Shown here one piece after another: positions 3,642 through 55,018 of a stretch of 64,000 bases of DNA. Under the pieces are notes generated by a model, which saw only the letters and a program-made list of their open reading frames with translations, was not told the origin of the DNA and searched no databases. This stretch comes from Candidatus Omnitrophota bacterium (GTDB lineage Bacteria; Omnitrophota; Gorgyraeia; Duberdicusellales; 4484-171): assembly GCA_043815185.1 (NCBI GenBank), contig JBDRJF010000026.1:773-64772 (forward strand), given 5' to 3'. The position numbers and the translations under genes are program-made. Every line of letters starts with the position of its first letter. Position 1 is the stretch's first letter.

Positions 3642-4340
3642 ATGGATAATTTTCTTTTATCAATAGTTATCCCTTGTTTTAACGAAAAAGAGTTTGTGAA
3701 GGAGTTGGTAGATAGAGTAAGAAACACCTCTATAGTCAATAAAGAGATAATTTTAATTGATGATGGTTCTACTGACGGGACAAAAGATATTATTAAAAAT
3801 GAAATAGAGCAAAAGGTAACCAAGGTAATTTATCACGACAGGAACCTGGGCAAGGGCGCAGCTTTACGGAGCGGATTCAAGGAAGTTCGAGGAGATATAA
3901 TTATTGTCCAGGATGCTGATTTAGAATATGACCCCCAGGAGTATCCCCGGCTGATTAAACCCATTTTAGATGGCAAGGCCGATGTGGTCTATGGTTCAAG
4001 ATTTGTGGGCTCCCAGGAGCATCGGGTTTTATATTTTTGGCATATGATGGGGAACAAATTTCTTACTCTTATTTCTAATATATTTACCAACCTTAATCTT
4101 ACTGACGTAGAGACTTGTTATAAAGTTTTCAAGAAAGATATTCTGGGTAAGGTTTCTTTGCAGGAGAGTGGATTCGAATTTGATCCGGAAATTACTGCAA
4201 AAGTGGCAAAATTAAAGTGTAGGATTTATGAAGTGGGAATTTCTTATAGCGGAAGGACTTATGCCCAGGGTAAAAAGATCGGCTGGCAAGACGGGCTAAA
4301 GGCTTTGGCGGCCATCATTAAATATAATTTTATTGGATAA
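3642..4340 (+). CDS. Family 2 glycosyltransferase (polyprenol-phosphate sugar synthase-like)
   Basis: SIVIPCFNE...IDDGSTDGT...[10 protein letters not shown]...YGSRF pattern of DPM1/ArnC-like GT2 enzymes. Confidence 0.85.
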
Positions 4341-4845: not shown

Positions 4846-6927
4846 ATGGTTACTTCGTTGTCGATTCCCAATTTAGGAAAGAATGCTTTTGTTTTCTCAG
4901 CCGGCAAATGGGCTAAACAAGCAAATGGCAGTGTTAGTGTCTCTTATGGCGATACGGTTGTTTTGGCCACTGCTTGTATGTCCCAAGATGCATCTAGCGG
5001 TAGAGGGTTTTTCCCTTTAATGGTAGAGTATCAAGAGAGGACCTATGCTATGGGGAAAATCCCCGGTGGTTTTTTCAAAAAAGAAGGCAGGCCTAAAGAT
5101 AAAGAGATACTCACCGCTCGTCTTATTGACCGCCCTTTAAGACCCCTTTTCCCTCAAGGGATGGCTAATGAAGTTCAGATCATTGCCATGGTTTTATCCA
5201 GTGATGGTAAGAATGATCCTGATATTTTAGCCGTTAATGCTGCCAGTTGTGCTCTTCTCATCTCAGATATTCCTTTTGTTAATCCTGTGGGAGCAGTAAG
5301 GGTGGCGAAAACCGGAGATAAGTTTGTGGTTAACCCTATTTATGAGGAGCGAGAAGATTCCCCCATGGATTTAGTGGTGGTAGGGACGGAAAATAAGATA
5401 ATAATGCTTGAGGGTGGACTTAACCAGATTCCAGAGAAAGAAGTTCTGGAAGCAATAAAATTCGCTCATCCTTTTATAAAAGAAATAATTAAATTGCAGC
5501 ACGAATTTAGGAAGAAGGCAGGTAAAGATAAAAAAGAAGTTCCTTTACTTGAAGTAGATAAAGAGCTATTGAATAACCTGCGCAATAAAATTGGTGCGAA
5601 ATTAGAAAAGTCCTACGGTTTACCCAGTAAGGAAGAAAAAGGGGCATTTATAAGTCAGATAGCCTGTTCATTAAAAGAAGAATTAGTAAGTGAGAAGTCG
5701 GGAGTTACTGACCAGGATATAGAAAATGCATTAGATATTTTAGAGGAAGAAGTTTTACGCAGGAAAATATTAAAAGAGGAGAAGCGGCCTGACGGCAGGT
5801 CTCTCAAAGATATCAGGTCGATTGAATGTGTAGTTAAGGCTTTACCGCGTACCCATGGTTCAGCTACTTTTACTCGGGGGCAGACTCAATCTTTGGCAAT
5901 TACAACTTTAGGAACTAGCTCTGATGCACAGTTTATCGAGGCTTTAGAAGGAGAGAGTTCAAAGCATTTTATGTTGCACTACAGTTTCCCCCCTTTTAGC
6001 GTCGGTGAGGTAAAATTTATGCGTGGGCCTTCCCGGAGGGATATCGGCCACGGTGCTTTGGCTGAAAAATCACTTGCTCCAATCATCCCTTCCAAGGAGA
6101 AATTTCCTTATACTATTCGGATAGTCTCCGAGATTTTAGAATCAAATGGCTCTTCATCTATGGCTTCGGTATGTGCCGGCTCATTATCACTGATGGATGC
6201 CGGTGTCCCGATAGAAGAAGCAGTAGCTGGTATTGCCATAGGTTTAATTAGTAAAGATAAAGACTATAAGATTCTTACTGACATTGCTGGAGCCGAAGAC
6301 CACTATGGCGATATGGATTTTAAAGTTGCCGGAACTGTAAATGGCATTAACGCTATTCAATTAGATACAAAAATAGACGGATTAACATTTGAGATTATTG
6401 AAGAAACTTTAGAAAGAGCCCAAGAAGCGCGCTTATTCATTTTAGAAAAGATGAAGGACGCTATCGCTTCATCACGAAACGAGCTTTCAGAATATGCGCC
6501 GAAGATAAAGTCATTTGCCGTAAATCCTGACAAGATCGGGGCGATTATCGGCCCTGGCGGCAAGATAATAAAGCGAATTCAGCGGGAAAATAATGTTAAT
6601 GTGGATATTGATGATGAGACAAGTGTAGTTTCAGTGGCAGCCCAGACAGTTGAAGATTTAGAACGAGCTGTAAAACAGATCACTAATTTAGTTAAGGATA
6701 TAGAAGTTGGAGAAATTTACGAGGTTAAAGTTGAAAAAATAGTTAATTTTGGTGCATTTTGCGAAATTGCACCGGGAAAGAGCGGTTTAATCCATGTCTC
6801 CGAACTTTCTAATGAATTTGTTAAAGATGTAGAAAGTTTTCTAAAAGAAGGAGATATTCTGAAAGCAAAAGTCATCGGAATTGATCCTCAAGGAAAAATT
6901 AGACTTAGCTTGAAGCAAGCAAAATAA
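4846..6927 (+). CDS. pnp: Polyribonucleotide nucleotidyltransferase (PNPase)
   Basis: Two RNase PH domains, then KH (GPGGKIIKRI) and S1 (GEIYEVKVEKIVNFGAFCEI) domains. Confidence 0.97.
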   Translation: MVTSLSIPNLGKNAFVFSAGKWAKQANGSVSVSYGDTVVLATACMSQDASSGRGFFPLMVEYQERTYAMGKIPGGFFKKEGRPKDKEILTARLIDRPLRPLFPQGMANEVQIIAMVLSSDGKNDPDILAVNAASCALLISDIPFVNPVGAVRVAKTGDKFVVNPIYEEREDSPMDLVVVGTENKIIMLEGGLNQIPEKEVLEAIKFAHPFIKEIIKLQHEFRKKAGKDKKEVPLLEVDKELLNNLRNKIGAKLEKSYGLPSKEEKGAFISQIACSLKEELVSEKSGVTDQDIENALDILEEEVLRRKILKEEKRPDGRSLKDIRSIECVVKALPRTHGSATFTRGQTQSLAITTLGTSSDAQFIEALEGESSKHFMLHYSFPPFSVGEVKFMRGPSRRDIGHGALAEKSLAPIIPSKEKFPYTIRIVSEILESNGSSSMASVCAGSLSLMDAGVPIEEAVAGIAIGLISKDKDYKILTDIAGAEDHYGDMDFKVAGTVNGINAIQLDTKIDGLTFEIIEETLERAQEARLFILEKMKDAIASSRNELSEYAPKIKSFAVNPDKIGAIIGPGGKIIKRIQRENNVNVDIDDETSVVSVAAQTVEDLERAVKQITNLVKDIEVGEIYEVKVEKIVNFGAFCEIAPGKSGLIHVSELSNEFVKDVESFLKEGDILKAKVIGIDPQGKIRLSLKQAK

Positions 6928-19682: not shown

Positions 19683-20560
19683 TGATTCATCCTAAGGCAA
19701 TTATCGAAAAAGATGTAATTTTAGGAGAAGAGGTAAGCATAGGCCCTTATGCTTATATCGAAAAGGGGGTTCATTTAGGCCGGGGAGTAAGGGTTTCTGC
19801 TTTTGTACACTTAAAGGCTAATACTTATATTGGCGATAATACTTTTATTGGCAGTGGCAGCGTTATTGGCGAAGCCCCCCAAGTTTTAGAGTCCAGAGTT
19901 CCCAGGGGTAAGGTTTATATTGGAAAAAATAATATTATCCGGGAGTATGTTACGATCAATTGCGCAAGCTCTCCCGATAAGGCCACTTCCTTAGGCGACA
20001 GTAATTTTCTTATGGCCTGTTCCCACATCGCCCACGACTGTAAGTTAGCCAATAATATTGTTATTTGCAATGGTACTCTGGTTGCCGGTCACGTTGAAAT
20101 TCAAGATAAGGTCTTTATTTCCGGAAATGTAGTTATTCATCAATTCGTAAGGATTGGCAGGTTAGCAATGGTGGGAGGCCTCTCGAGAGTTAACCAGGAT
20201 ATACTTCCCTTTATGCTGGTAGTCGGAGACTCCCGGGTTTGGGGGCTCAATTTAGTAGGTCTAAGGCGAGCAAGTTTTAAAGCTAACCAGATAAGTCCAA
20301 TTAGAAAAGCCCATAACTTCCTTTACCGCAAGGACTTGCCTCTTAAAATTGCTTTAGAAAATTTAAAGAAGATTGATTCAACTGAAGTGAAGGAGATGGT
20401 AGTTTTTATTCTTTCCTCTCAAAGAGGAATTTGCGGCCCTAAAAGAAGTACTTTATGGGAAAAGCTATTTTTAGATTACCCTTATTTTATCGGCAGGAAA
20501 ATTCCTACTTACGATTCTTTGCCTAAGCCTGATTTAAATAAGTTTGATACTAGAGAATAA
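19682..20560 (+). CDS. lpxA: Acyl-ACP--UDP-N-acetylglucosamine O-acyltransferase
   Basis: Left-handed beta-helix hexapeptide repeats starting MIHPKAII, the HIAHDC motif, and an LpxA-type helical C-domain. Confidence 0.85.
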   Translation: MIHPKAIIEKDVILGEEVSIGPYAYIEKGVHLGRGVRVSAFVHLKANTYIGDNTFIGSGSVIGEAPQVLESRVPRGKVYIGKNNIIREYVTINCASSPDKATSLGDSNFLMACSHIAHDCKLANNIVICNGTLVAGHVEIQDKVFISGNVVIHQFVRIGRLAMVGGLSRVNQDILPFMLVVGDSRVWGLNLVGLRRASFKANQISPIRKAHNFLYRKDLPLKIALENLKKIDSTEVKEMVVFILSSQRGICGPKRSTLWEKLFLDYPYFIGRKIPTYDSLPKPDLNKFDTRE

Positions 20561-21311
20561 TTTTTGTTGCGAAGACTAACCAGCCAGTATGGCAAGGCAT
20601 TAGTTGTTCCGGCCGGGTTTTTCCTCTTCTTACCAGAATTCTGCGCAGGAGAATTTCCATAGTTTCAATATTGACAAATCCTTTTTCTTCCAGGCTAAAT
20701 ACAGTTTTAGTAAGTTGTTCAAAAGTGGGGCATATTGTAGCAAGCCGGCAACCCCCTTTTAGTGATTTATAAGCAGCGTCAATCAATTCCCAGGGGCTTC
20801 CAATATCAATCATTACAAAGTCAGCTTCTTTTTCATCGAATTCAGTGGTAATTTCCTGGTGTTTGAATTCCACCCATTCATTTAAGCCGTTCTTTTCTAA
20901 GTTTTTCTTAGCATTTTCGAGAAATTCTTTATTTCTTTCGTAGCTATAGACTCGGCCGTTGGGTCTGACAAAATTAGCCAAAGCCGTAGTTAATGCCCCG
21001 CTGCCTATGCCGGACTCAATTACTTTGGCTCCCGGAAAGATATTTCCCCGAACCAGGATCATTCCAATATCTTTGGGGTAAAGGATTTGTGTTTTTCTTC
21101 TTACTTTCATTACCAGCTCATAGAGGTAAGGACGGAGAATATAGAAGGGGAACCCCAGGTTTGTTTCTGCTCTTTGGCCAAATTCTTTGCCGATAAGCGA
21201 ACCGATTTCCAGAAAACCTTTATCGGTATGGAGGGTTTTTACTTCGGCCTTGAGGAGGAAGTTTCTTTTTTCATCGTTATAGAGGAATATGAGATCTCCT
21301 TGTTTTACCAT
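20550..21311 (-). CDS. trmI: tRNA (adenine58-N1)-methyltransferase TrmI/Gcd14 family
   Basis: N-terminal beta domain followed by a SAM-binding VIESGIGSGALT motif. Family-typical length. Confidence 0.85.
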   Translation of the reverse strand: MVKQGDLIFLYNDEKRNFLLKAEVKTLHTDKGFLEIGSLIGKEFGQRAETNLGFPFYILRPYLYELVMKVRRKTQILYPKDIGMILVRGNIFPGAKVIESGIGSGALTTALANFVRPNGRVYSYERNKEFLENAKKNLEKNGLNEWVEFKHQEITTEFDEKEADFVMIDIGSPWELIDAAYKSLKGGCRLATICPTFEQLTKTVFSLEEKGFVNIETMEILLRRILVRRGKTRPEQLMPCHTGWLVFATKIIL

Positions 21312-32635: not shown

Positions 32636-32742
32636 AAATATGTCCCGCCTCGCTATATAGTAGGTAAATTCTCTACGATAATTTACCTACACTCGGCGGG
32701 ATTCAATTCTCCGCCTAAGGCGGATCATTGAGGAGGTTAAAA

Positions 32743-33891
32743 ATGCGAATTTTAACTGCTGGTGAATCCCATGGGGAGTATATTGTAGCGATTCTGGAAG
32801 GATTTCCCAAAGGAGTAAAGGTTGACCTGAAATTCATCAATGAGGAATTAAAAAAACGGGCCTCTGGTGAAGGAAGAGGGAAACGGATGTCGATAGAGCA
32901 GGATACAGTTAATATTGTATCCGGTCTGCGCAATAAAATAACTTTAGGCAGCCCGATAGCTATGCTGGTCAAAAATAAAGATGCCAAGATATTTACTCAA
33001 GCCAAAGATCGCTTACCTTGTCTTTCTGTGCCGAGGCCTTCGCATGCTGATTTAGCCGGGGCCTTAAAGTATCAAGAAACAGATATCAGGAATATTCTCG
33101 AAAGAGCTTCAGCCCGGGAGACAGTAGCCAGAGTCGCTGCCGGCGCTATCTGTAAACAATTTCTTTTAAATTTTGGAGTAAAGATTGCCAGCTTCACTCT
33201 CAGCCTGGGAGGTATTTCTGCTCAGAAGGCCCCGAGAAGCATAGATGAGATTATTAATAAAGTTAAAGGGTCAAAATTAAATTGTCTCGATCAGAATAAA
33301 GAGCAGGCGATGATTAAGGAGATTGTTGAAGCAAAAGAGGCCGGGGACAGTTTAGGAGGGGTAGTTGAACTTTGGGTAGAAGGTACGCCTGCAGGACTAG
33401 GGAGTTTCATGCATTTTGACCGCCGCTTGGATGCCAAGCTTAGCGCTTATTTAATGGGTATTCCTGCGGTTAAAGGGGTTGAGATAGGTTTAGGTTTTGA
33501 CTACGCAAAAGAAAGGGGGTCTCTTACTCACGATGCGATATATTACACGGCCAATAAAGGTTTTACCAGAAAGACCAATAATTCCGGCGGCATCGAGGGG
33601 GGTATTTCGACAGGATTGCCAATTATCTTAAGACTGGCTATGAAACCGATTGCTACTTTGGCTAAACCCCTTGATTCAGTAAATATTGTTACCAAGAAAG
33701 CTCAAAAAGCGCCGGTTGTGCGTTCAGATGTTTGCGCGATAGTTGCTTGCGGCCTTATCGCTGAAAGTATGTCAGCAATTGCCATAACTGAGAGTTTTTT
33801 GGATAAATTTGGGTCTGATAGTTTAGGAGAGATAATTTCTAATTATCGTAATTACCGCAAGTCACTTAAATCTTTCACTAAAGCTAAATGA
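32743..33891 (+). CDS. aroC: Chorismate synthase
   Basis: MRILTAGESHG start preceded by AGGAGG. RPSHAD and SARET motifs. The track's TTG at 32728 overlaps the RBS. Confidence 0.95.
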   Translation: MRILTAGESHGEYIVAILEGFPKGVKVDLKFINEELKKRASGEGRGKRMSIEQDTVNIVSGLRNKITLGSPIAMLVKNKDAKIFTQAKDRLPCLSVPRPSHADLAGALKYQETDIRNILERASARETVARVAAGAICKQFLLNFGVKIASFTLSLGGISAQKAPRSIDEIINKVKGSKLNCLDQNKEQAMIKEIVEAKEAGDSLGGVVELWVEGTPAGLGSFMHFDRRLDAKLSAYLMGIPAVKGVEIGLGFDYAKERGSLTHDAIYYTANKGFTRKTNNSGGIEGGISTGLPIILRLAMKPIATLAKPLDSVNIVTKKAQKAPVVRSDVCAIVACGLIAESMSAIAITESFLDKFGSDSLGEIISNYRNYRKSLKSFTKAK

Positions 33892-36167: not shown

Positions 36168-36243
36168 GCCGAGGTAGCTCAGGCGGTAGAGCGAGGGACT
36201 GAAAATCCCTGCGTCAGGGGTTCAACTCCCTTCCTCGGCACCA
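36168..36243 (+). tRNA. tRNA-Phe (GAA), CCA encoded
   Basis: Manual cloverleaf: acceptor GCCGAGG/CCTCGGC, D arm GCTC-AGGCGGTA-GAGC, anticodon arm AGGGA-CTGAAAA-TCCCT, T arm AGGGG-TTCAACT-CCCTT. Confidence 0.95.
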
Positions 36244-36372
36244 TCGTCTTTTTGATAAAAGTTTGTTCTATGAGCCGAGGTTCATCTAAATGTGTAAAGA
36301 AACGACGGTTGAGGCTAAGCCTCAACCGGCTCCACCTTCGGCGGAGATTGGATACAACTCCCTTCCTCGGCA
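36244..36372 (+). repeat. tRNA-Phe-linked element: diverged left part, 45-nt double-hairpin module, second copy of the tRNA-Phe 3' end
   Basis: 36306-36350 is 43/45 identical to 51011-51055. 36355-36372 is an exact 18-nt copy of tRNA-Phe 36223-36240. 36274-36281 (GCCGAGGT) repeats the tRNA 5' acceptor strand. Confidence 0.65.
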
Positions 36373-36442
36373 TATTATGAATACTGTGTGGTCATAAAAG
36401 AAGGCCTATTTGTTTTATAGACATATATATACTTTTCGAACA

Positions 36443-36499
36443 GCGAGGGAATGATTAAGAAGAAAGCTTTGCCTTCGGCAAAGAATCGTTACCTCGGCA
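36443..36499 (+). repeat. Degenerate third unit: single CCTTCGG hairpin followed by CCTCGGCA
   Basis: Hairpin CTTTGCCTTCGGCAAAG (36467-36483), then CCTCGGCA (36492-36499). GCGAGG at 36443 can pair with CCTCG. Confidence 0.35.
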
Positions 36500-49982: not shown

Positions 49983-50816
49983 ATGAAAGTTTTTTTAGAC
50001 CTTGACAAAATTAAAGATTTATATTGGAATAAAAAATATAATCTAAAAGAAGTTTCTGAGAGCTTAGGCGTTTCATTTTGGTCATTATATAAGTTTATGA
50101 GCAAAAACAATATTCCCCGGCGAAGACGTTCGGAAGCAAACTATGTAGGAAATAAACATAAGTTACACTTTGAGGTAAAAAATGAATTGACAAAGAAAGA
50201 CAGAGAGCTGAAGATTGCCGGAATTATGTTATACTGGGCAGAAGGCTCTAAGAATCTAAAGTCTAATATGTTAGATTTCATTAATAGCGATCCCGACATG
50301 ATAAAGCTTTTCCTAAAATTTCTACGTCAGATATGTGGAGTGAAAGAAGATAGGCTTAGGCTGTATTTATACTCTTATTCTTATCAAGAGATAGATAAAT
50401 TAAAAGATTATTGGAGTAGACTAACAGGCATCTCTCAAAGCCAGTTTTTTAAACCCTATGTTAGGGAAGGTAGTCCTAATTTAAGCGAAAGAAAATTACC
50501 TTATGGATTGGTGCATATTAGGTATTGCGATAAGCGTTTATTGGAATTAGTTCTTAATTGGATTAAAGAGTTCAAGAATGATATATTAATAAAATGGGCA
50601 GGTACCCTAGTGGTCAAAGGGGACAGACTGTGTAAAACGCAGCGTCTTGCTGAAAGGCAGGATGGAAAAGTGGGTGAATTCAGGGAAACCCTTAACATTT
50701 TTAATGGTAAGGGTAATCCTGAGCCGAGTTCTAAATCGTATGGTTTAGAAAGGGTGCAGAGACTATCCCGTAAGGGAGTAGCCCGGCGATTGTCGGTCGA
50801 AGCGCCTACCACCTAA
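49983..50816 (+). CDS. LAGLIDADG-family homing endonuclease-like protein with an N-terminal HTH; 3' end uncertain
   Basis: Single LAGLIDADG-type motif (KIAGIMLYWAEGSK), then FINSDPDMIKLFLKFLRQ and YGLVHIRYCDKRLLELVLNWI blocks. Codons from about 205 onward are tRNA-Tyr exon 1 plus intron sequence. The first in-frame stop is inside the intron. Confidence 0.72.
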   Translation: MKVFLDLDKIKDLYWNKKYNLKEVSESLGVSFWSLYKFMSKNNIPRRRRSEANYVGNKHKLHFEVKNELTKKDRELKIAGIMLYWAEGSKNLKSNMLDFINSDPDMIKLFLKFLRQICGVKEDRLRLYLYSYSYQEIDKLKDYWSRLTGISQSQFFKPYVREGSPNLSERKLPYGLVHIRYCDKRLLELVLNWIKEFKNDILIKWAGTLVVKGDRLCKTQRLAERQDGKVGEFRETLNIFNGKGNPEPSSKSYGLERVQRLSRKGVARRLSVEAPTT

Positions 50817-50928
50817 ATCCTGCTTTTAGCGGGATATGGTGATGAGATAGTCCAAGCCCTAAGGTAACTTAGGAGTACTTGAAATCTGTTGTGCTTGCAC
50901 TTCGAAGGTTCAAATCCTTCCCTGCCCA
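50596..50928 (+). tRNA. tRNA-Tyr (GUA), class II, interrupted by an intron (exons 50596-50631 and 50882-50928); CCA not encoded
   Basis: Joined exons give acceptor GGGCAGG/CCTGCCC, D arm CCCT-AGTGGTCAA-AGGG, anticodon arm ACAGA-CUGUAAA-UCUGU, long variable arm, T arm GAAGG-TTCAAAT-CCTTC. As I recall it, this is closely collinear with E. coli tRNA-Tyr. Confidence 0.88.
50632..50881 (+). ncRNA. Group I intron (IC3-like) in the tRNA-Tyr anticodon loop, between nt 35 and 36
   Basis: The 5' exon ends in U. P1 is CUGU/GCAG (50628-31 with 50639-42), closing with a U-G wobble. The terminal nt is G. Core strings AATTCAGGGAAACCC, GGGTGCAGAGACTA and CCACCTAAATCC resemble tRNA group I intron cores such as Azoarcus (from memory). 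Confidence 0.8.
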
Positions 50929-51080
50929 TAGTTTTCTTTGAGGCCTAAGGTTGTTTGATGAAAACAGGGTGATTGGTTTGACAAGGTGACATTCATTTGG
51001 ATGCAATATGCGGTTGAGGCTAAGCCTCAACCGGCTCCGCCTTCAGCGGAGATTGCCTACAAATCCTTTCCTGCTCACCA
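50929..51080 (+). repeat. tRNA-Tyr-linked element: diverged left part, 45-nt double-hairpin module, second copy of the tRNA-Tyr 3' end with CCA
   Basis: 51011-51055 is 43/45 identical to 36306-36350. 51060-51077 matches tRNA-Tyr 50911-50928 at 16/18, and both changes are C-to-T. Confidence 0.65.
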
Positions 51081-53980: not shown

Positions 53981-54083
53981 TGGGTTTAGATTCCGGGGTT
54001 TAAGATGTTTTTAAAGGCATCTCGGATATCTATCCTTGATGCCGAAAAAAACAAGGAATAACCCTGAATAATTGCTTTTTGTT

Positions 54084-54159
54084 CGGGAGGTGGCGCAGCT
54101 CGGATTAGCGCACTTGAATGGGGTTCAAGGGGTCGCGGGTTCAAATCCCGCTCTCCCGA
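54084..54159 (+). tRNA. tRNA-Pro (GGG)
   Basis: Acceptor CGGGAGG/TCTCCCG, anticodon arm CTTGA-ATGGGGT-TCAAG, T arm GCGGG-TTCAAAT-CCCGC. Confidence 0.9.
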
Positions 54160-54230
54160 TATAGTGGTTATTTGAGGGGTTTGAGATATCCGGAGAGTGG
54201 TAGAGATAGCACAGAGAAAAGGGGTAGAGA

Positions 54231-55018
54231 AAAGGGGTCACCTCCCTTTTTCTTCCTTCTTTTTGGGTCTTCCTGGATTCAAACATTTCAATGACCGGTT
54301 TAATATTTTTTCCGCGTTTTTAATAAATATCTCTGATCCTACTACTAAACCCCTTTTTGTTTTTAAGCGCATCTCATTCACCATCACATTATCTTCTTCA
54401 CAAAGATACGTTTTCCATTCTCTCGCATTCATATCCAATGAATCCTTTAATGCGATAAATTCTTTAACCGGTATTTCTGTATGAATAGGTGCGCTCGACC
54501 AGTCATAATTCCAGGCATTATCCACTACCTTTGCCCGTACAGGGTTTCTTTCTACATAGCGTATGGCACGGTATAAATGTGTTTCGTCTAACAGGCATGA
54601 AAAATAACGCCCCTGCCACACATGACCATGTTGTTTTCGCTTTCGATTTACATATTGGGAATATCTCATGGTAAGGGTATTTAAAACCATTCCCAATGAT
54701 TTCTTATCGTGAGGAATTACTATAATATGCGTATGATTATTCATCAAACAGTAAGCAAGTATATCTATATGATATTTCTTTGAATATTCCTCGAGCCAAA
54801 AAAGGTACTGTCTAAAATCTTTAGGTTCTTTAAATATCTTTTGTTGGTAATTTCCTCGCTGAGTTATATGGTGGGCTTCATCGGGTATGACTATTCTGAC
54901 TTGTCGCGGCATGTGTTACCTCCTTTACATAATAGACGTTTTAAGCGGCAGAATTCTTTCATTTTTTAAAATTTTTTGAAACGATAGAGGAGTTAAAAAA
55001 AAGGGAGTTGACCCCTTT
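54231..55018 (-). mobile_element. RAYT / IS200-like unit: Y1 transposase gene bracketed by 21-nt inverted repeats
   Basis: The reverse complement of 54231-54251 (AAAGGGGTCACCTCCCTTTTT) matches 54998-55018 (AAAAAGGGAGTTGACCCCTTT) at 20/21. The left repeat covers the last codons of the gene. The unit starts 72 nt after tRNA-Pro. Confidence 0.7.
54238..54912 (-). CDS. REP-associated tyrosine transposase-like protein (Y1_Tnp / IS200 superfamily, COG1943 type)
   Basis: HHITQRGN, AYCLMNNHTHIIV (HUH motif), GHVWQGRYFS and RYVERNPVRAKVV...YDWSS (catalytic Tyr region). Confidence 0.85.
   Translation of the reverse strand: MPRQVRIVIPDEAHHITQRGNYQQKIFKEPKDFRQYLFWLEEYSKKYHIDILAYCLMNNHTHIIVIPHDKKSLGMVLNTLTMRYSQYVNRKRKQHGHVWQGRYFSCLLDETHLYRAIRYVERNPVRAKVVDNAWNYDWSSAPIHTEIPVKEFIALKDSLDMNAREWKTYLCEEDNVMVNEMRLKTKRGLVVGSEIFIKNAEKILNRSLKCLNPGRPKKKEEKGR

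Follow-up and report, generated by a model that had tools for sequence, protein, structure and literature searches.

The 64,000-nucleotide stretch analyzed here (hereafter the window; positions 773 to 64,772 of contig JBDRJF010000026.1 from a Candidatus Omnitrophota bacterium, with a G+C content of 38.8%) carries copies of a family of short, protein-less sequences of ~105 to 190 bp, which have one conserved right end and a variable left part and are found, in this genome and its relatives, within tRNA genes and at the start codons of protein genes. It is very probable that they are a family of mobile insertion elements. Taken as a whole, the reading that we favor, with clear reservations, is that they are non-autonomous elements with a folded single-strand end that would read their target by base pairing and replace the ends of the genes in which they insert.

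The original prediction was built on a 45-nucleotide (nt) repeat at positions 36306 to 36350 and 51011 to 51055, behind tRNA-Phe and tRNA-Tyr, and its description of the sequence has held. The two copies have two mismatches (43/45 identity, with no match in 100 shuffles) and both fold into two hairpins. One difference, A to G, converts an A.C mismatch into a G:C pair in hairpin 2 (CTCCACC versus CTCCGCC), and the second disrupts a loop-closing pair. Four bases past the repeat lies a copy of positions 56 to 73 of the upstream tRNA, from the T loop to the discriminator: CAACTCCCTTCCTCGGCA at 36355 to 36372 is identical to tRNA-Phe over 18/18 nt, and CAAATCCTTTCCTGCTCA at 51060 to 51077 matches tRNA-Tyr at 16/18. 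Relatedness to the left of the repeat is also real, though modest (~57% across 42 nt). What did not hold was the extent of the module, which is larger than 45 nt, since an outer helix (P1) encloses both hairpins. Below, B is the copy that completes the gene (in tRNA-Phe, the last 18 nt before CCA, 36223 to 36240) and B' is the displaced, module-side copy (Table 1).

Distribution of the family

The insertion sites identified among Omnitrophota relatives, in genomes and metagenomes, number 15: six in tRNA genes (Phe twice, Tyr, Pro-GGG, Pro-CGG, and Thr), eight exactly at the ATG of protein genes in operon junctions, and one in neutral intergenic DNA. An exact 21-mer of the module was present at six loci of two metagenome-assembled genomes (MAGs; record label Planctomycetia) and in three metagenome contigs. 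Two of these loci have the tRNA layout, namely tRNA-Pro(CGG) in locus L003 and tRNA-Pro(GGG) in L006, the latter also carrying the orthologue of the window's tRNA-Tyr copy. The remaining seven have no tRNA, and the element lies within an operon junction, as at infA-rpmJ in L005 and hisC-aroF-like in L009. The layout there is an upstream stop codon, the native ribosome-binding site and ATG, the module, ~110 nt, a second ribosome-binding site and ATG, and the downstream gene, with the genes and both ribosome-binding sites all on the strand opposite the module. A hidden Markov model of the module retrieved a diverged copy at another start codon (L003, 2797 to 2990) and one at infA-rpmJ of a second lineage (L032 to L038), and further diverged copies were recovered with a structure descriptor; the syntenic loci of relatives were obtained via neighboring proteins. 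Five short-read contigs (L016 to L020) stop inside the element at infA-rpmJ, which suggests that the repeat breaks assemblies. In scans of viral contigs, the 21-mer found no full-length copies, and GGCRGAGATTGYATACA gave nine chance matches within coding sequence.

The proposed link to tRNA genes was not borne out by this distribution, as most copies of the 45-mer are at start codons of protein genes, one relative is in plain intergenic DNA, and only 6 of the 15 insertion sites are in tRNA genes. The distribution of the copies also contradicts an explanation to which we give next to no credence, namely local tandem duplication of tRNA 3' ends by unequal recombination, with the hairpins being ordinary terminators. 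Repeated tRNA 3' ends do occur behind a tRNA gene, as in tyrT of Escherichia coli, but here one and the same module recurs in several genomes at 12 sites that are unrelated, protein-gene starts among them, and on the module strand the hairpins are not followed by a T-run. The related idea of a decayed tRNA copy failed in shuffle tests: local alignments with a degenerate 5' half of the local tRNA inside the element were no better than those of shuffles.

Anatomy of the conserved end and pairing with the target

P1 encloses either a single hairpin (consensus CTNNGCC-TTC-GGCNNAG) or this hairpin together with a second one (GGTTGAGGCTWAGCCTCAACC). In M-type copies, P1 is GATRCAAT/ATTGYATA, with R:Y covariation and seven pairs inside the element; in the three single-hairpin copies, the P1 sequences are unrelated to one another, yet each remains complementary. 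In hairpin 2, the strand CTCCGCC, CTCTGCC, or CTTTGCC always faces a partner that matches it, and apical insertions of 7 to 9 nt are tolerated. Hairpin 1, which is absent in the single-hairpin type, has the covarying forms GGTTGAGG/CCTCAACC, TGTTTAGG/CCTAAACA, and GGTTGAGATC/GATCTCAACC. The two ends of the elements are unrelated in sequence; hence, there are no terminal inverted repeats.

Exactly at the element boundary there is a non-Watson-Crick G.A apposition in 13/13 M-type copies, and past the boundary P1 takes in 4 to 5 nt, at most 9, of the target DNA alongside. An internal sequence, which we call the guide, therefore matches the flank. The guide:flank pairs are TTTG:CAAA (Tyr and Pro-GGG), CTTG:CAAG (Pro-CGG), GATG:CATC and AATG:CATT (start codons), CGAGG:CCTCG (E2, the second of two tandem elements at tRNA-Phe), GAGG:CCTC (Thr, 9/10 with one bulge), and GTTG:CAAC (intergenic). 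Pairing is 4/4 in 11 of 14 independent elements, with seven different sequences, and permuting the flanks among elements gave a P of <5e-6; among the 11 copies found by sequence alone, 39/44 guide-flank positions pair (P = 3e-4). The maintenance of the stems by compensatory changes, the tolerance of apical insertions, and the base pairing of the flank to internal sequence point to an end that would act as a folded single strand.

Filled and empty sites

Several sites are filled in some genomes and empty in their relatives, as the original prediction had proposed checking, and this was seen at tRNA-Phe, tRNA-Tyr, tRNA-Pro, infA-rpmJ, and the intergenic site; the sequences are therefore inserted DNA. 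At infA-rpmJ, the empty site is a 12-nt spacer (TAA-AGGTAGATTAAA-ATG) in L023, L028, L031, and L034, and the element is present in L015, L021, and L032-38. The spacer between gpsA and an HD gene contains a single-hairpin copy only in L048 and is empty in L054, L056, L006, and the window; this insertion consists of the element plus a second CAAC and nothing else.

The tRNA sites behave in the same way. Empty tRNA-Phe sites, with the native flank directly after the tRNA, were found in L010 (tRNA at 4222 to 4295) and L014 (4159 to 4234); in the window, the flank after the third tRNA copy (B'') is this native downstream flank, collinear with the tRNA end and flank of L010. L013, the nearest relative for the DAO gene, has other neighbors there, without tRNA-Phe. 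L048, L054, and L056 have no insertion at tRNA-Tyr, the tRNA in L056 running straight into the native flank CCATTATC, and in the window B' is followed by CCA and the native spacer to tRNA-Gly (CCATTATT, as behind tRNA-Tyr of L056). The tRNA-Pro(GGG) site is empty in L054, where the native flank also directly follows the tRNA. The remnant at this site in the window aligns with a complete element in L006 (1143 to 1005), whose B' is followed by CCAGATTA..AAAGGGGGCAGAATG, as in L054. L048 has at 6298 to 6370, behind the same tRNA, a decayed and shortened M-type copy (hairpin 1 variant GGTTGAGATCTGATCTCAACC) that lacks the displaced tRNA copy and ~10 nt of native flank, and behind tRNA-Thr a single-hairpin relative inserted at positions 60/61, with a 16-nt copy up to CCA and then native flank, the flank of B' being the native flank of L056.

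This presence or absence among close relatives argues against the elements being a structured RNA, that is, a small RNA or a cis-regulatory or processing element cotranscribed with tRNAs or operons, in which the copy would provide a tRNA-like or antisense end. Such a role would fit the strongly stable fold (z = -6.2 for the module plus flanks), the compensatory changes in the stems, and the 7-nt copy of the 5' acceptor strand inside E1, the first element at tRNA-Phe, which pairs with B' (5/1,000 shuffles reach this). However, of the five tRNA copies, E1 alone has a significant long-range acceptor-like pairing of the interior with B', and we rejected this stem. No Rfam match was found on either strand even at an E value of 10, only tRNAs and a group I intron being above the gathering threshold. 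Moreover, the module is in sense orientation at tRNA sites and antisense to the neighboring gene at start codons, B' is mutated in the Tyr copy of the window and deleted in the Pro copy of L048, and a small reading frame across the module is not conserved. We consider a structured RNA improbable, and the suggestion of a tRNA-linked RNA family in the original prediction is thus not sustained. Two related candidates were rejected as well. An opposite-strand leader peptide (MYTISAEGGAG) keeps neither its length nor its sequence and is absent at tRNA sites, and a terminator or promoter role is not supported, as the module strand has no T-run behind the hairpins and promoter calling in L005 gave no consensus promoter.

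Origin and length of the flanking copies

At every site compared, the module-side copy B' is contiguous with the native flank; therefore, the completing copy B was brought in by the insertion. At rpmJ, B' resembles the ribosome-binding site of the empty site, whereas the B copies at start codons are near-identical at unrelated genes (GTAGGTAAGAG-ATG in the gene sense). The start-codon elements thus carry their own ribosome-binding site and ATG, and these copies also have a -10-like box (TAATAT), recognized by inspection only.

The duplication covers 4 nt at the intergenic site, 8 nt at Phe 65/66, 16 nt at Thr 60/61, and 18 to 19 nt at position 55/56, and at start codons the identity between the flanking copies is 3 to 16 nt. 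In tRNA genes, the duplicated length equals the distance from the insertion point to the gene end. Such variable lengths mean that there is no fixed staggered cut, and a fixed target-site duplication was rejected both for this reason and because at infA-rpmJ it is the module-side copy, and not the gene-proximal one, that matches the empty site. On the module strand, the insertion site reads TT/C followed by the complement of the guide; the insertion point follows TT in 12 of 15 cases and CT or AT at two start codons, and the left junction of L008 is off the contig.

These lengths bear on a further alternative, that the elements are mini integrative elements like cis-mobilizable elements (CIMEs), moved by a tyrosine or serine recombinase in trans, with the flanking copies as attL and attR and the module as recombinase binding sites. 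The target gene end is duplicated and restored, and elements have built up in tandem at tRNA-Phe (E1 and E2), as is typical of integrase-borne islands at tRNA genes. In addition, the 21 bp of hairpin 1 form a perfect palindrome, variable at the central base only, as in a dimer binding site, and the start-codon junction GAGAT-TGTATAC-ATCTC is a dyad. Nevertheless, an identical core of 6 to 8 bp or more in both flanking copies is present at tRNA sites but missing at several start codons: the flanking copies have just CAT or CATCT in common in L004, L005, L007, and L003b, and CAAC at the intergenic site, so that the 3 to 5 nt of identity are too short for an overlap region of 6 to 8 bp. The crossover points within the tRNA vary (55/56, 60/61, and 65/66), the stems stay paired as their sequence changes and accept apical insertions of 7 to 9 nt, the internal guide pairs with the flank, and no integrase is encoded in the window. 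We therefore regard this explanation as unlikely. From the mini-element proposal made originally, it stands that the elements are gene-less, flanked by target copies, share one conserved end, and have empty sites in relatives; the footprint of a tyrosine recombinase is not supported, given duplications of 4, 8, 16, and 18 to 19 nt.

A guide RNA, with a 5' scaffold and a 3' guide like the omega RNA of TnpB, that steers a nuclease or recombinase to the tRNA gene or gene start, would also place a scaffold before 16 to 19 nt identical to a nearby site, and the matched site has TT just 5' (CT or AT at two start codons), with the tRNA copies matching at 16/18 to 19/19. However, at start codons the module-adjacent copy is often unlike the nearby site, the copy may be only 4 or 8 nt long or deleted, the restored tRNA would be a perfect self-target, and there is no gene for TnpB, IscB, or Cas among the open reading frames (ORFs) of the window, all of which makes this possibility very remote.

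A candidate enzyme and the proposed mechanism

The original statement that the window encodes no integrase is correct, yet it does encode a Y1 HUH transposase of 224 amino acids (aa) like the REP-associated tyrosine transposases (RAYTs; REP, repetitive extragenic palindromic). The gene was found by a scan of all ORFs of the window after the HUH view had been reached. Its best NCBIfam match is NF047646, REP-associated tyrosine transposase, with 66.9 bits, below the cutoff of 80 (19.3 bits for IS200), and it has the motifs HTHIIV and YRAIRYVERNP. Inverted repeats of 24 nt, both of them imperfect palindromes (54231 to 54254 and 54995 to 55018), bound the gene, which sits where the tRNA-Pro(GGG) copy of the window breaks off and synteny with L006, L048, and L054 ends. 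A 13-nt tandem repeat, AGAGAAAAGGGGT, lies beside it at 54213 to 54238. Scans of viral contigs found no relatives of the protein, and no Y2 HUH transposase was found among the ORFs of the window. The RAYT-like gene is a candidate for the enzyme class only, and its tie to the family is circumstantial.

In the mechanism that we propose, the elements would be mobilized in trans by an HUH-type enzyme that cuts and joins single-stranded DNA at the boundary, like the TnpA of IS200/IS605, the RAYTs, and the IS91 transposases. A single-strand mechanism of this type is plausible, and we are less confident of it than of the mobility of the family. The basal event would add only a second copy of the guide-matched tetranucleotide. 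In every within-gene copy, the left part carries the replacement for the severed gene end, which in tRNA genes runs from the insertion point to the discriminator base and at start codons comprises a -10-like box, a ribosome-binding site, and the ATG. The displaced original end remains behind the module and decays. The replacement ends may have been captured from neighboring host DNA through an alternative guide-matching cleavage site, as in one-ended transposition.

Comparison with known systems

IS608 recognizes a tetranucleotide target through its pairing to an internal guide, which lies beside the foot of a hairpin and is reprogrammable (PMC3201880, PMC5934647). Like IS200/IS605 elements (IS608, ISDra2, and the non-autonomous PATEs), the family has no terminal inverted repeats or target duplication, a subterminal hairpin, and a tetra- or pentanucleotide read by a guide, and a Y1 HUH gene, by its scores RAYT-like rather than IS200, is present in the window. 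It differs in that guide pairing prolongs a regular 7-bp helix over the element boundary, in that the end is mostly a three-way junction and only one end is clearly structured (IS200/IS605 elements have similar hairpins at both), in that the cleavage-site sequence is on both sides and the left part carries host gene ends, and in that no TnpA adjoins any copy.

Elements of the IS91 family make no target duplication, and their tetranucleotide target (CTTG or GTTC) abuts an end with one or two subterminal palindromes; ~170 bp of the ends is enough for transposition, and failed termination, or one-ended transposition, comobilizes adjacent DNA (PMC13181058). The architecture of our family fits that of IS91/ISCR elements in its functionally different ends, the lack of target duplication, and a tetranucleotide by a palindromic end, and its small size would fit the sufficiency of short ends. 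Since failed termination of this type comobilizes adjacent DNA, it would explain captured gene ends, and the variable left parts of the family are indeed host-like gene ends, consistent with capture. In our family, however, the target tetranucleotide varies and matches an internal guide, no Y2 enzyme was found, and no autonomous copy of the 105- to 190-bp elements is known.

Short structured repeats together with a genome-encoded RAYT-like Y1 enzyme are reminiscent of REP/REPIN-RAYT systems. REPs, however, are extragenic and numerous palindromes of 20 to 40 nt that normally flank the RAYT gene, whereas here a different 24-nt palindrome flanks the RAYT-like gene and the family lies within tRNA genes and at start codons. 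CIMEs and tRNA islands likewise duplicate the 3' part of a tRNA, complete the gene with an element-borne copy, and accumulate in tandem; the differences are a duplication whose length depends on how far away the gene end lies (8, 16, or 18 nt; 3 to 5 nt elsewhere), one element end at many unrelated targets, stems that act as nucleic acid structure, and the lack of an integrase in the window. With the attC sites of integrons, the family shares a folded single-strand site, a recombination point inside a helix, an outer helix drawn from neighboring DNA, and variable cargo on the opposite side, but it has no GTTRRRY/RYYYAAC boxes, no extrahelical bases in the usual places, and no integron integrase or attI, and its targets are tRNA loops and start codons.

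Literature searches returned no description of such elements in Omnitrophota. The class of mechanism is probably a known one, and we regard the family as a new variant by its combination of a three-way-junction end, guide pairing that continues the helix over the boundary, and carried gene-end replacements, by which tRNA T-loops, acceptor stems, and start codons become open to insertion.

Weaknesses of the favored reading

Several points weigh against the reading of the family as mobile elements with a folded end, base-paired target reading, and gene-end replacement. A guide of 4 to 5 nt cannot alone account for the fact that 14 of 15 sites are at gene ends; either the carried end contributes through homology to the target, or all other insertions are removed by selection. 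The B' copies of L002, L008, and L009 do resemble B. The module shares the strand of the tRNA at tRNA sites and is antisense to the neighboring gene at start codons, so that no single relation to the direction of replication can be drawn. Most copies have no left-end hairpin, the intergenic copy of L048 having a left-end palindrome of unrelated sequence, and no capture event was seen among the copies compared. Three of the 14 guide-flank cases stem from a search that demanded this pairing; because the intergenic case was found, and E2 confirmed, in this way, we give more weight to the 39/44 figure.

As to the enzyme, the family has no transposase tied to it. The repeats that bound the RAYT-like gene are unlike the module and do not recur in the window or the 56 fetched loci, and no homologue of the protein was found in the other fetched loci.

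At tRNA-Phe, the 5' strand of P1 has been lost in E1, the stretch just past the intact tRNA resembles the native trailer of L014 (17/21), and E1 contains at 36273 to 36279 an exact copy of the 5' acceptor strand of this tRNA (GCCGAGG), complementary to B'. At tRNA-Tyr, B' tracks a T-stem difference between the window and L006, which could be due to independent insertion, gene conversion, or chance C-to-T decay. Lastly, the evidence is wholly comparative and most loci come from MAGs and metagenome contigs.

We also considered, as an unlikely alternative, that these are a distinct kind of programmable element that combines an internal guide of 4 to 9 nt with carried "gene-end prosthesis" homology and homes to essential sequences by an enzyme or mechanism not described before. 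If this were true, the near-exclusive location at gene ends would be due to targeting in addition to survival, and tRNA T-loops, acceptor stems, and start codons would be hit without host death.

Coordinates and other features of the loci

The features of the three tRNA loci and the transposase gene are listed in Table 1. E2, for which ~0.1 match to the structure descriptor is expected per shuffled window, has hairpin 2 with two compensatory pairs and its own P1 helix.

Table 1. Features of the window that relate to the element family
Feature	Position	Strand	Remarks
tRNA-Phe(GAA)	36168-36243	+	Intact; ARAGORN, Rfam
Element E1, M-type	36241-36354	+	Inserted at tRNA-Phe position 55/56
E1 hairpin 1	36306-36328	+	
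E1 hairpin 2	36330-36346	+	
E1 P1 3' strand	36347-36354	+	
B' of tRNA-Phe	36355-36372	+	Displaced copy of positions 56-73; 18/18
Element E2, diverged, single-hairpin	36373-36491	+	Inserted at tRNA-Phe position 65/66; structure descriptor, folding
E2 guide	36444-36448	+	CGAGG
E2 junction G	36449	+	
E2 P1 5' strand	36450-36456	+	
E2 hairpin	36467-36483	+	CTTTGCC-TTC-GGCAAAG
E2 P1 3' strand	36484-36491	+	AATCGTTA
B'' of tRNA-Phe	36492-36499	+	Original 3' end CCTCGGCA, positions 66-73; third, 8-nt copy
tRNA-Tyr(GTA)	50596-50928	+	Exon 1, 50596-50631; group I intron, 50632-50881; exon 2, 50882-50928; B, 50911-50928
M-type element at tRNA-Tyr	50929-51059	+	Inserted at position 55/56
Tyr guide	50995-50999	+	ATTTG
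Tyr P1 5' strand	51000-51007	+	GATGCAAT
Tyr hairpin 1	51011-51033	+	
Tyr hairpin 2	51035-51051	+	
Tyr P1 3' strand	51052-51059	+	ATTGCCTA
B' of tRNA-Tyr	51060-51077	+	Displaced original 3' end; 16/18, both differences C to T
M-type left part after tRNA-Pro(GGG) (54083-54159)	54160-54216	+	Module and B' missing
RAYT-like Y1 HUH transposase gene	54238-54912	-	224 aa; Pfam PF01797, 4.9e-13

The tRNA-Tyr gene is missed by ARAGORN because a group I intron (Rfam RF00028, 84.7 bits) interrupts its anticodon loop between positions 35 and 36; the intron-free sequence is called as tRNA-Tyr(GTA). The intron is also present in L056 and absent from L006, L048, and L054. An ORF of 204 codons (49983 to 50594) lies between tRNA-Thr and tRNA-Tyr and reads on into the tRNA and intron. 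It was found only in the window, the relatives having a spacer of 9 to 12 nt, and gave no Pfam or PDB match and only a weak hint of a helix-turn-helix; it may be a free-standing mobile gene tied to the intron. Behind tRNA-Pro(GGG) of L056, a different AT-rich palindromic insert of ~125 nt (6517 to 6640) separates the tRNA from the native flank. The motif AAGGAATAACCCTRAATAA lies upstream of several tRNA genes (Pro and Gly; window 54050 to 54075, L006 ~4110 to 4140 and 1225 to 1250 on the minus strand) and may be a promoter-associated sequence. Look-ups of the exact sequences of two window proteins returned no record. The window also has at 20550 to 21311 a gene for a TrmI/GCD14-type tRNA m1A58 methyltransferase, of relevance only in that the T-loop is an insertion site.

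A second family of structured inserts occurs in operon junctions (window 32636 to 32743, L023 2233 to 2351, and L034 2232 to 2299). It consists of an outer stem ATCCCGCC...GGCGGGAT around a covarying hairpin, then a second hairpin (CTCCGCC-TAA-GGCGGA in the window), and then CATTGAGGAG..ATG, so that this family also supplies a ribosome-binding site. The insert in the window is absent between the same genes (pilD-like and aroC) in L010.

Implications

If the favored reading is correct, the family shows how a tiny parasite survives in a compact genome with almost no spare DNA, namely by entering tRNA loops and start codons, the most conserved sequences on offer, and supplying the piece of the gene that it severs. 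The guide-flank pairing would allow targets to be predicted from sequence, as they can be in IS608, a system already re-engineered for site-directed insertion, and a natural family whose several guides reach 9 nt would be useful to study. Expression is rewired as well, as operons are split by the elements and the downstream gene gains a new ribosome-binding site and probably a new promoter. For annotation, extra tRNA 3' ends of this kind should not be counted as scars of prophages or genomic islands.

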